From assembly GCA_049303795.1 (NCBI GenBank), contig JBAQNM010000005.1, positions 35,228-99,227 of the forward strand: 64,000 bases of DNA, written 5' to 3'. Position 1 is the first letter of the stretch. Each line of letters opens with the position of its first letter. The translations under genes were made by a program, and so were the position numbers. The notes beneath the pieces are model-generated. The model was given only the letters and a program-made list of their open reading frames with translations. It searched no databases and had not been told where the DNA came from. The DNA comes from Candidatus Moraniibacteriota bacterium (GTDB taxonomy: Bacteria > Patescibacteriota > Minisyncoccia > Moranbacterales > UBA2206). This document shows, piece after piece, positions 48,459 to 50,465 of the stretch.

Positions 48459-48947
48459 CTAGAGCATAGCTTTTTCAATTATTTCTTTGTCTTTTTGAGA
48501 ATCTAATTTTTCATAAATTATTTTTTCCGTAGCCACTATAACTAAATTAGCAATCTCCGCTCTTACTTCAGAAAGCATTTTTGTCTTCTCTTGATCAATA
48601 TTCTCCTTAGCATCTTCAATCATTTTCTTATTCTGTTCTTTTGCCTGATTTAGCACATCTTCAGAAATCCTGATCGCATCCTCCCTGGATTTTTTGATAA
48701 TTTCCTGCGCTTCCTTCTTGGCTACTGTTAATACTTCTTTTTCCTGTAAAGTTATTTCTTCTAATTTTTCCGAGGCCTCCTTGGAATCTTTGAGACCTTT
48801 CTCGATCTTTCTTGTTCTGTCGTTGAGTGTTTTTAGAATCGGTTTATAGGCGAATTTATACAACACTAAAAGAACAATGATAAAATTTACCATTTGTGCC
48901 AGAAGCAAATTAATCTCAATGTGAAATGTTTTTATTAGTTCATCCAT
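48459..48947 (-). CDS. Second copy of F-type ATP synthase subunit b
   Basis: 162 aa. N-terminal TM (LLAQMVNFIIVLLVLYKFAY) then a long charged helix. Same LLAQ..NF..L motif as atpF at 37920-38414. Confidence 0.7.
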   Translation of the reverse strand: MDELIKTFHIEINLLLAQMVNFIIVLLVLYKFAYKPILKTLNDRTRKIEKGLKDSKEASEKLEEITLQEKEVLTVAKKEAQEIIKKSREDAIRISEDVLNQAKEQNKKMIEDAKENIDQEKTKMLSEVRAEIANLVIVATEKIIYEKLDSQKDKEIIEKAML

Positions 48948-49024
48948 AAAAATAAATTTATAATTTTTAATTCTATAACAATCTCATTTCGATTCCGTCG
49001 AAACGGAACCAAAGAAAACTACTA

Positions 49025-49237
49025 TTATTTGATTGAAAAAGCAATAACCAAAGCATAAATAGCCACCGCCTCGGCGAAAGCTGATGCCAAAAGCATTGGC
49101 ACGAGAATTTTTTCCGCTGATTCCGGATTCCTTCCGATTGCCTCCATGGCTTTAGCGCCAATCTTTCCGATAGCGAGAGCTGGAGCAATTGAACCGATTC
49201 CAATAGCCAATCCCTTGGCCAACATTGTTAGATCCAT
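49025..49237 (-). CDS. Second copy of F-type ATP synthase subunit c, H+-type binding signature
   Basis: Helix 2 [15 protein letters not shown] (Glu present, Ser/Thr replaced by Ala/Val). Helix 1 position 32 is Ile. RNPE loop conserved. Confidence 0.8.
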
Positions 49238-49328
49238 AAAATTATTTCTTTATTTTAGAAGTCGACTCGATTTTTTATTTTAAAGTCGCTTGAAAAATAA
49301 AATTTAAAAAAATTAATTAACTAAAAAA

Positions 49329-50180
49329 TTAATGCTCTGCGTGACTTTCTGAGGCTATTGTCATAAAAACCATTGTGAGTATCGCAAATATGAGAGCCTG
49401 AATTATTCCAACAATTATCTCTAAAAACATAAATGGTAACGGCAGAAAATAAGCAAAAATAGCCATCATCGAAGCTAAAAGTACTTCGCCAGCAAAAATA
49501 TTTCCAAAGAGCCTGAAGGTAAGAGAGGCTGTTTTTGCCACCTCGCCAATAAGCTCCACAATACCCACAAAAGCTTTAATTGGATTGACAAGTATTATGG
49601 AAAAATCTTTTTTTATCTTTCCTGGAATTTCCAAGAATGCTTCAAAATTAATAAATTTATTCAGATGTTTCCAAATTCCAATTGCTAGAATTCCCGCAAT
49701 ATGAGAAGCAACAATTGCGAAAAGTGCCAAAGCCAATGTAGTGTTGATGTCGGCCGTAGCCCCTCGAAGAATCGGCACAAAAACTCTATGCACTCCGTCA
49801 ACTTCGTTAAAACCGATTGTTCCAAAGCCTGGCAAAAGCCCGAGCCAATTATTCACTAAAATAAATAGAAAAAGGGCTAGCGAAATTGGCAGAAACTTTT
49901 CAGTCTTTTTCCTCTCTCCGGTGATGCTATCTCCCAACTCTAAGGCTTTTTCAAGAATTATTTCAAAAATATTTTGAATTCCATCAGGAATCCTTTTGAG
50001 TTTTTTGCCGGCTAGAATGAAAACAACAACTAGAATAAAAACTGCTATCCAGCCAGAAATCAAAGAATTGGTAACAACAAATTCGCCAATATGAAAAACC
50101 GGCTCAGCAAATAAAGTTGCCTCGTGAGAAAACTCCTGATTCAAATTTCCATTATTATTTTGTGGTTGATGTTCTGCCAT
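49329..50180 (-). CDS. Second copy of F-type ATP synthase subunit a
   Basis: FRLFGNIFAGEVLLASMMAIFAYFLPLPF with the essential Arg. 283 aa. Confidence 0.85.
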   Translation of the reverse strand: MAEHQPQNNNGNLNQEFSHEATLFAEPVFHIGEFVVTNSLISGWIAVFILVVVFILAGKKLKRIPDGIQNIFEIILEKALELGDSITGERKKTEKFLPISLALFLFILVNNWLGLLPGFGTIGFNEVDGVHRVFVPILRGATADINTTLALALFAIVASHIAGILAIGIWKHLNKFINFEAFLEIPGKIKKDFSIILVNPIKAFVGIVELIGEVAKTASLTFRLFGNIFAGEVLLASMMAIFAYFLPLPFMFLEIIVGIIQALIFAILTMVFMTIASESHAEH

Positions 50181-50183
50181 ATA

Positions 50184-50465
50184 TTATTTTTTTGATATTA
50201 CATTCTTTCTTTTTTCCTCATCCTTATTCTCGATTCTTTTCATCTCCTTAATTGCATCTCTTGTTATTCCCACTGTTGAAATAATAAAAGCAAATCCGAT
50301 ACAAAGAAGAAATAGCCATGGCTCAGTTTTATATTTTTTATCCAACCACCTACCAATAAAAAGAGCAAAAATAACTGGCCCTGCAATCCAACCAGAAAGT
50401 CGATAAAATAAAACCAAACCTGGCTGCCACCAAGGCGCCGTAGATTTTTGTTTTTCTTTTTCCAT
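50184..50465 (-). CDS. AtpZ/AtpI-like small membrane protein preceding the second Fo gene set
   Basis: Start taken at internal MEKEKQK. WWQPGLVLFYRLSGWIAGPVIFALFIGRWLDKKY resembles the AtpZ pattern of 39528-39782. The track ORF extends to 50528. Confidence 0.45.
   Translation of the reverse strand: MEKEKQKSTAPWWQPGLVLFYRLSGWIAGPVIFALFIGRWLDKKYKTEPWLFLLCIGFAFIISTVGITRDAIKEMKRIENKDEEKRKNVISKK

Follow-up and report, generated by a model that had tools for sequence, protein, structure and literature searches.

An F-type ATPase locus of a Candidatus Moraniibacteriota bacterium with two membrane-sector gene sets, H+-type and Na+-type by motif, and one set of F1 genes

Why would a bacterium keep two gene sets for the membrane sector (Fo) of an F-type ATPase beside one set for the catalytic head (F1)? 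The question is raised by 64 kb of a Candidatus Moraniibacteriota contig, hereafter the window. On its minus strand, a complete operon in the order Z-a-c-b-delta-alpha-gamma-beta-epsilon (39782-32517) is accompanied by a further Z-a-c-b set at 48459-50465, and between the two lie an operon for an Ehr-like complex and a gene for a putative carbonic anhydrase (CA)-like protein (Pro_CA_2). The original prediction had described both gene sets, and family matches for all four open reading frames (ORFs) of the F1-less one bore it out. We refer to the genes joined to F1 as set 1 (Z1, a1, c1, b1; Fo1) and to the F1-less genes as set 2 (Z2, a2, c2, b2; Fo2). By tblastn, a, c, b and the AtpZ-like gene were present in two copies each, and alpha, beta, gamma, delta and epsilon in one each, counts that hold for these 64 kb; as predicted, no alpha, beta or gamma paralogue was found nearby. 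We lean slightly towards the reading that these genes specify two membrane sectors, used as alternatives by one F-type ATPase with a single, shared F1, and, jointly with this, that Fo2 is the older module of the lineage, H+-type and placed at the customary head of the atp locus, and Fo1 a Na+-type module joined to F1. This reading fits sister genomes with a sole Fo, the selection on both sets and the presence of both sets ahead of one F1 in two other lineages. An alternative Fo swapped onto the single F1 was among the proposals of the original prediction and is the part that stood, in contrast to a dedicated Ehr partner and the labelling of the sets.

Set 2 scored above the gathering cutoffs of PF00119, PF00137, PF00430 and PF09527 and above the cutoffs of TIGR01131 and TIGR01144, and set 1 passed the same tests except for Z1, which reached 20.2 bits against the PF09527 cutoff of 26.6. 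Both a subunits contain the stator arginine motif FRLFGNIFAGE (LRLFGNxxAGE around R210 in E. coli), the stretch reading TFRLFGNIFAGEVL in a2 and SFRLFGNIFAGEVL in a1, and the helix-2 ion-binding carboxylate E65 is kept in both c1 and c2. Protein identity between the sets was 32% for a, 49% for c, 38% for b and 31% for Z, which ruled out a recent in-genome duplication, and it was indeed foreseen that set 2 is not a near-identical copy. Relatives elsewhere are 78-97% identical to each set, far above the between-set identity; by these values, the two sets are old paralogues. The ion sites were numbered as in Ilyobacter tartaricus, whose c sequence as used here was identical to PDB 1YCE. Upon alignment to I. 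tartaricus (1YCE) and Fusobacterium nucleatum (3ZK1) c, the c1 site reads E32, I63, E65, S66, T67 and Y70, with every residue of the Na+ c-ring signature (Q/E32, E65, S66, T67, Y70) present. In the same alignment, the c2 site reads I32, F63, E65, A66, V67 and Y70, retaining only E65 and Y70 of the signature and differing at 32, 66 and 67. The alignment upheld the motifs first noticed, i.e., two carboxylates in c1 and Ile32 with Ser/Thr lost in c2, and from motifs alone we infer that c1 is Na+-type (two-carboxylate, F. nucleatum type) and c2 H+-type. The helix-1 packing sites (G25-G27-G29-G31-G33 in I. tartaricus) were S-A-A-A-G in c2 (49180-49215) and A-G-A-G-G in c1; judging from alanine-rich c-rings, the H+ ring may be the larger of the two. 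The top PDB match of c1 was Acetobacterium woodii c (4BEM), and that of c2 was Chloroflexus aurantiacus c (9ITJ), which shows I32 and E-A-L-A in the alignment; a2 also matched Chloroflexus best (9ITJ_T). The Chloroflexus enzyme has been described as proton-driven (PMC12002316).

Evidence for the shared-F1 reading comes from relatives, whose loci or contigs compared with the window are numbered L001-L081. A database search with a2 gave thousands of matches, the top ones 70-97% identical, and those with a name were Candidatus Moranbacteria or Moraniibacteriota. In L001 and L003, an a2-type set is the sole Fo; delta-alpha-gamma-beta-epsilon come directly after it, and MetRS and TatD stand upstream, as they do in the window. 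L005, L006 and L080 likewise have a single a, to which a2 was 83-85% identical, and c2 was 96-97% identical to their c. A search with a1 found its type, too, to be widespread among bacteria of the candidate phyla radiation (CPR). The close Moranbacteria L032-L037, L044/45 and L076-L079 have it as sole Fo, in the MetRS-TatD context and with no Ehr after it, and a1 and c1 were 78-79% and 88-89% identical, respectively, to the sole Fo of L032-L037. The window F1 was 92-97% (alpha), 90-97% (gamma) and 94-95% (beta) identical to that of Na-only genomes, and 91-94%, 90-96% and 89-96% identical to that of the H-only L005, L006 and L080. Moreover, in a neighbour-joining tree of alpha plus beta, the Na-only loci, the H-only loci, those with H-type Fo and Ehr, and the window were interleaved within one tight clade; a second clade was equally mixed, with L024 (H-type with Ehr) among Na-type loci. 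Since the Fo types are interleaved on alpha, beta and gamma subunits that are 89-97% identical, the Fo module appears to have been swapped or differentially lost several times on a nearly unchanged F1. Each type is the sole Fo beside a near-identical F1 in sister genomes, and both modules should, therefore, work with essentially this F1. Because set 2 is orthologous to the only Fo of Ehr-bearing relatives and lies at the usual atp-locus head by TatD, these comparisons mark it as the ancestral Fo in the ancestral position, which reverses its initial label as the second set; set 1, delta included, would be an alternative Na+ cassette. A foreign (non-CPR) source of this cassette was not supported, the named sources among the best 120 a1 matches being all CPR bacteria, Moranbacteria included. 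As a separate observation, mobile elements lie beside the Fo cassette in one H-only relative (L003 6000-9701; L004 464-1537): just upstream of atpZ is an RVT_1 reverse transcriptase gene, and about 3 kb beyond it in the upstream direction the other strand carries an rve integrase gene.

The gene order of the window was also found in L038 (Logan SRR14126298) and L040-L043 (three NCBI metagenome-assembled genomes and one Logan contig). These are five other contigs of independent assemblies, so an assembly chimera was ruled out and the layout is not an assembly artefact. The ENA contig L039, with proteins 95-100% identical to those of the window, reads c2-b2-Z1-a1-c1, with neither Ehr nor CA genes in between. 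The first part of its b2-Z1 spacer is 90.6% identical to the b2-nuoB spacer of the window until about 25-40 nt before the nuoB start, and the second part is 92% identical to the sequence upstream of Z1. The switch point is the repeat GACACCG(C/T)TTTTTT, present twice in the window (Table 1) and once in L039; this contig is, thus, best explained by a deletion in a layout like that of the window, between the 14-nt direct repeats. The nuoB gene is preceded by about 115 nt, running from the TTGACA box to the ATG, that share homology with the spacer between epsilon and nuoB in L005 and L006. They thus constitute the promoter and leader belonging to the Ehr operon, moving with the Ehr block; L039 keeps them without the Ehr genes. 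The leader also contains a small hairpin with a T-run (CGGTTGACACCG CTTTTTT; 48305-48327), between the promoter-like site and the ATG, which is conserved in L005, L006 and L038, is also one arm of the deletion repeat and could be an attenuator. The Ehr-CA block between the Fo sets is the outcome of rearrangement and no proof that Fo2 works headless.

Traces of a double set were seen elsewhere. In L081 (a1 83% identical), an orphan Z2-like gene (73%) stands directly before Z1-a1-c1-b1-delta-alpha and looks like the trace of a lost a2-c2-b2. The Na-only L032-L037, L076 and L078 have an extra ORF of 82-86 amino acids (aa) between b1 and delta, which the window lacks; it matched ATPase_gene1 in most of them, was 44-51% identical to Z2 where compared and may be the leftover of a former second Fo set. 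In L051 and L052, from two different JGI metagenomes, the order is a2-c2(H-type)-b2-Z-a1-c1(Na-type)-b1-delta in one operon, with spacers of 0 to about 30 nt. Their a subunits are just 60-63% identical to those of the window, and hence the order with the H-type Fo first and the Na-type Fo beside delta occurs in a distant CPR lineage too. This arrangement bears on the alternative that Fo2 has an F1 set of its own at another place in the genome, so that the organism would possess two complete ATP synthases and the genes of one would be split. The analysis covered 64 kb, the cognate type-2 delta of b2 is missing from the locus, and split atp operons occur in alpha-proteobacteria and cyanobacteria. 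We nevertheless hold this alternative to be quite improbable, since Fo2 stands directly before Fo1 and the single delta in L039 and L051/L052, every relative examined has one F1 set at the locus, and CPR genomes are small and usually encode one F-ATPase. An N-ATPase or a second complete operon within the window was ruled out by gene order, by tblastn for F1 paralogues and by the scores against the 'alternate F1F0' NCBIfam models (bits against cutoff: altF1_A 80/302, alt_F1F0_F0_C 42/131, alt_F1F0_F0_B 55/225).

Both Fo sets have the substitution pattern of working genes. Against L038, whose a2 is 97% identical, the ratio of non-synonymous to synonymous substitution rates (dN/dS) was 0.085 for Z2, 0.054 for a2, 0.042 for c2 and 0.049 for b2; against L039, it was 0.045 for b2, 0.076 for Z1 and 0.030 for a1, with zero amino-acid changes in c1 and c2. 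The dS values of these comparisons were 0.15-0.44, and nuoB, hyfB and TatD gave dN/dS of 0.04-0.07 in the same comparisons. These values point to strong purifying selection on both sets and to an Fo2 that is not decaying, and a pseudogenised remnant was ruled out by them. That Fo2 is a decaying, functionless leftover of an Fo cassette replacement is, in our view, extremely improbable: four intact ORFs in at least six assemblies, dN/dS of 0.04-0.085 over a dS of about 0.3, the key residues kept and a distant lineage that also retains both sets all count against it, even though some relatives lost one set (L081 retains only the orphan Z2) and Fo2 comes without F1 genes of its own.

The delta subunit appears to go with the Fo type, as that of the window is 73%, 65% and 59% identical to those of the Na-only L034, L036 and L032, vs. 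48-50% for the H-only L005, L006 and L080. It is 133 aa long here and in 17 of the 18 homologues found, with one of 145 aa and one of 180 aa; solved bacterial deltas have 173-179 aa, and the model of the window delta matches them partially. In this AlphaFold2 (AF2) model (predicted local distance difference test score, pLDDT, 90.7), there are three N-terminal helices, and the OSCP profile matched from position 52 onward, so that the predicted protein has the shortened delta N-terminal domain of the Chloroflexus-type two-stalk F1Fo. In Chloroflexus, this shortening has been linked to a pair of peripheral stalks and a pair of a subunits (PMC12002316). Such a likeness, together with Chloroflexus a and c as the best PDB matches of a2 and c2, and with L051, where both Fo sets and F1 stand in one operon and would hence be made together, speaks for a composite enzyme, in which the a1/b1 and a2/b2 stators would sit at once on one F1, or c1 and c2 would mix in one ring, giving a dual-ion machine with two stalks as in Chloroflexus aurantiacus. 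We consider this unlikely, because the short delta is found in single-Fo relatives as well and hence needs no pair of unlike stators, in Chloroflexus the products of one a gene and one b gene each serve twice, and the c1 and c2 ion sites differ. To our knowledge, no natural mixed-ion c-ring has been described. The specific form with H+ a2/b2 and Na+ a1/b1 stators around one rotor, a two-stalk Moranbacteria-like ATP synthase, we take to be quite unlikely; if true, one rotary enzyme would be coupled to two ions at once and could trade a proton for a sodium gradient without net ATP turnover.

The neighbouring complex has the NuoB-, NuoC/D-, NuoH- and antiporter-like subunits of an Ehr-like complex and lacks the NiFe ligands. 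In its NuoB-like subunit, T, E and D occupy three of the four iron-sulfur (FeS) cysteine positions (aligned to MbhJ and HycG), and where NiFe enzymes carry RxCGxCxxxH and DPCxxC, the large subunit reads RISGDMSASH and DPSFCN. With these motifs replaced, the predicted complex cannot be a hydrogenase or a normal redox module, and it is probably cofactor-free. The window agrees with CPR Ehr-like (group 4 NiFe-hydrogenase-related) complexes without NiFe ligands described by Jaffe et al. 2020 (PMC7304191); in its main text, a term search gave no occurrence of 'ATP synthase' or 'ATPase'. When a genome collection was scanned with the NuoB-like protein, 27 loci were recovered, belonging to Moran-, Uhr-, Falkow- and other CPR bacteria. 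Upstream sequence of 1 kb or more was available for 24 Ehr loci of several CPR phyla, and 21 of them have Z-a-c-b-delta-alpha-gamma-beta-epsilon followed by nuoB; the exceptions are L007, L020 and L030, with other genes upstream of nuoB. Among the 27 loci, b stands beside nuoB in no other species. A conserved Fo2-Ehr gene pair was thus ruled out, the usual order being epsilon and then nuoB, and the adjacency is specific to the lineage of the window. The original prediction had asked whether a/c/b duplicates accompany Ehr-like operons elsewhere and had named a regulatory or ion-shuttling partner of Ehr as one possible role; instead, most other Ehr loci follow the epsilon of a complete atp operon, and none follows b, and L039 lacks the Ehr-CA genes between its Fo sets. 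A weaker form of the link was retained: wherever the c gene of an Ehr-linked operon was found, it had the H+-type site (I/V32 and E-A-(V/I)-A; 18 of 18), and no Ehr was seen after Na-type operons among those with several kb beyond epsilon. Restriction of Ehr to H-type operons is, then, a lead, and it suggests that Ehr-like complexes act with the ATPase in consuming or building a proton gradient. The Pro_CA_2 gene is a frequent atp/Ehr neighbour in many relatives, and L007 has a 340-aa CA-like ORF with an FKCMDGR motif before nuoB (180-1202). The CA and atp/Ehr pairing recalls DAB, an energy-coupled CO2 hydration system.

These data also allow weighing the alternative that Fo2 is headless and serves the Ehr-like complex by conducting protons or as a structural partner. 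Fo2 adjoins the Ehr operon, no terminator-like site was called between b2 and nuoB by the consensus-type scan, and Ehr is always found with an H-type Fo. Yet, b2 has a full-length soluble stalk under purifying selection (dN/dS 0.045-0.049), and we know of no role for a b stalk without F1. Moreover, relatives have the orthologous set as an ordinary Fo bound to F1; neither L039 nor any of the Ehr loci with an atp operon before them (21 of 21) shows the adjacency; L039 lost the Ehr block and retains the Fo2 genes c2-b2; and free Fo is a proton leak in E. coli. A headless Fo2 is, consequently, very unlikely in our judgement.

Returning to two membrane sectors on one F1, several points weigh against it. 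The most serious is that the locus encodes only a type-1 delta; the type-2 delta, partner of b2 in H-only relatives, is missing, and therefore b2 must dock on a delta that is not its usual one. An alignment made to see whether b2 converges on b1 at the delta-binding end showed scattered changes only. Assembly of Fo2 with F1 is deduced from orthologous sets beside F1 in relatives, the ion specificities of c1 and c2 are read from motifs, and the F1 genes are co-transcribed with Fo1 only. The evidence from L039 is a single 2.4-kb contig, the count tying Ehr to H-type operons comes from a NuoB-similarity sample in which kinship was ignored, and the single F1 set was counted over 64 kb of the genome.

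If the reading is right, F1 would assemble once and dock on either Fo, generating H+-F1Fo and Na+-F1Fo in the same membrane. ATP hydrolysis by both forms would energise proton and sodium gradients; alternatively, one form could run forward and the other backward, and one gradient would be converted into the other. CPR bacteria have generally been described as fermenters without a respiratory chain. The H+ form would serve the same ion circuit as the Ehr-like complex, and the Na+ form would build or use a sodium gradient. With separate promoter-like sites before Z2, nuoB and Z1, and a hairpin before Z1, the H+ module and Ehr could be expressed apart from the Na+ module and F1. The H+ module was probably retained because the redox-dead Ehr-like complex uses protons, as suggested by Ehr being found in relatives only beside H+-type operons. 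In all cases known to us, each F-type ATP synthase of an organism is coupled to one ion, and two whole enzymes are present where both H+ and Na+ are used; in this locus, doubling is confined to the membrane sector and stalk, and the catalytic head would be shared. The close relatives amount to a natural swap experiment, with F1 subunits 92-97% identical beside an H+-type or a Na+-type Fo, which bears on the modularity of the F1-Fo interface, on how mis-assembly of c-rings and stators is avoided and on the evolution of coupling-ion switches. The present analysis revealed the near-constant place of Ehr behind an H+-type atp operon as well as the lost FeS ligands of NuoB; a position nearly always after the atp operon and, in this sample, only beside H+-type rotors is a testable clue to the role of the cofactor-less CPR Ehr.

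Comparison with known systems sets the locus apart. With F. nucleatum c, c1 shares E32, E65, S66, T67 and Y70, and its residue 63 is likewise hydrophobic, giving its backbone to the ion site; I. tartaricus and F. nucleatum have one Fo set, unlike the window, where a predicted Na+-type set stands beside an H+-type one in a CPR host. The Na+ F1Fo of A. woodii (4BEM) likewise has several rotor genes before one F1 set, but only c is multiplied, all c serve Na+ and there are one a and one b, whereas in the window the whole Z-a-c-b is doubled and the ion sites differ. N-ATPases (atpDCQRBEFAG) are likewise second F-type gene sets, often with a Na+ motif; their operons have their own alpha, beta, gamma and epsilon, AtpQ/AtpR and no delta, in contrast to the Z-a-c-b of set 2. 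Chloroflexus aurantiacus (9ITJ; PMC12002316) shares the I32 and E-A-x-A pattern of c and a delta shortened at its N-terminal domain, but uses single genes for a, b and c, with a and b employed twice, instead of two gene sets. According to PMC10054830, the genome of Photobacterium profundum SS9 also carries two ATP synthase gene sets that are tuned differently, each with its own F1, and not, as here, a doubling of the membrane sector and stator stalk only. Na+ F-ATPases have been noted in two soda-lake Falkowbacteria (PMC6146748). Multiple c genes, N-ATPases, genomes with two F-ATPases, CPR Ehr without NiFe ligands and Na+ F-ATPases in Falkowbacteria are, therefore, already known. Our literature searches, whose incomplete coverage makes this weak evidence, found no description of a doubled Z-a-c-b module with one shared F1, and, with the same coverage, no report of Fo-type swapping among near-identical CPR F1 sets or of Ehr restriction to H-type operons.

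Table 1. Features of the locus in window coordinates, in the direction of transcription.
Feature	Position	Strand	Remarks
TatD-like	51410-50580	-	Upstream neighbour of Z2
Promoter-like site before Z2	50500-50528	-	TTGACA-17-CACAAT; consensus scan only
AtpZ2	50465-50184	-	AtpZ/AtpI-like small membrane protein, 93 aa from ATG; PF09527 E 3.9e-9
a2	50180-49329	-	Fo subunit a, 283 aa, putative H+-type module; PF00119 E 5e-41
c2	49237-49025	-	Fo subunit c, 70 aa; PF00137 E 2e-17
b2	48947-48459	-	Fo subunit b, 162 aa, full-length stalk; PF00430 E 2.5e-27; TIGR01144 above cutoff
Promoter-like site of Ehr operon	48394-48367	-	TTGACA-16-TAATAT; between b2 and nuoB
Left direct-repeat copy	48323-48308	-	GACACCGCTTTTTTAT; in nuoB leader
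NuoB-like	48284-47742	-	Ehr-like operon (41071-48284), gene 1
HyfB-like	47735-45744	-	Ehr-like operon, gene 2
NuoH+HyfE-like fusion	45747-44146	-	Ehr-like operon, gene 3
HyfF-like	44123-42645	-	Ehr-like operon, gene 4
NuoC/D-like fusion	42633-41071	-	Ehr-like operon, gene 5
Pro_CA_2	40959-40039	-	Putative carbonic anhydrase-like, two-domain, 306 aa; PF20393 E 2.3e-16, two stretches
Terminator-like hairpin	40003-39972	-	12-bp stem and T-run, strong; between Pro_CA_2 and Z1
Right direct-repeat copy	39979-39964	-	In 3' arm of terminator-like hairpin
Promoter-like site before Z1	39958-39930	-	TTGACG-17-TATCAT; conserved in L039
Z1 (AtpZ-like)	39782-39528	-	Putative Na+-type Fo module (37920-39782)
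a1	39521-38763	-	Putative Na+-type Fo module
c1	38724-38497	-	Putative Na+-type Fo module
b1	38414-37920	-	Putative Na+-type Fo module
delta	37805-37404	-	F1 set (32517-37805); 133 aa, type-1
alpha	37383-35875	-	F1 set
gamma	35854-34895	-	F1 set
beta	34347-32968	-	F1 set
epsilon	32954-32517	-	F1 set

As to the features in Table 1, a longer, TTG-started ORF of AtpZ2 (to 50528) is probably not the used form, and AtpZ2 is a 93-aa call in L038 and L040-43 too. The spacer from b2 to nuoB is 174 nt, and the promoter predicted between set 2 and the Ehr-like genes was called there by the consensus scan. A DUF4349 gene beyond epsilon ends the region, and an Rfam scan of the window gave no family at threshold. 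Within the F1 genes of relatives, a bAvd / 23S_rRNA_IVP-like ORF was observed between beta and epsilon in L078 (16777-16983) and L079 (16779-16985), and gamma in L078 and beta in L079 were each split into two calls. Finally, local GC at 27900-29390 of the window rises to 0.44 vs. about 0.34, coinciding with the gene for a 496-aa LysM-domain protein.

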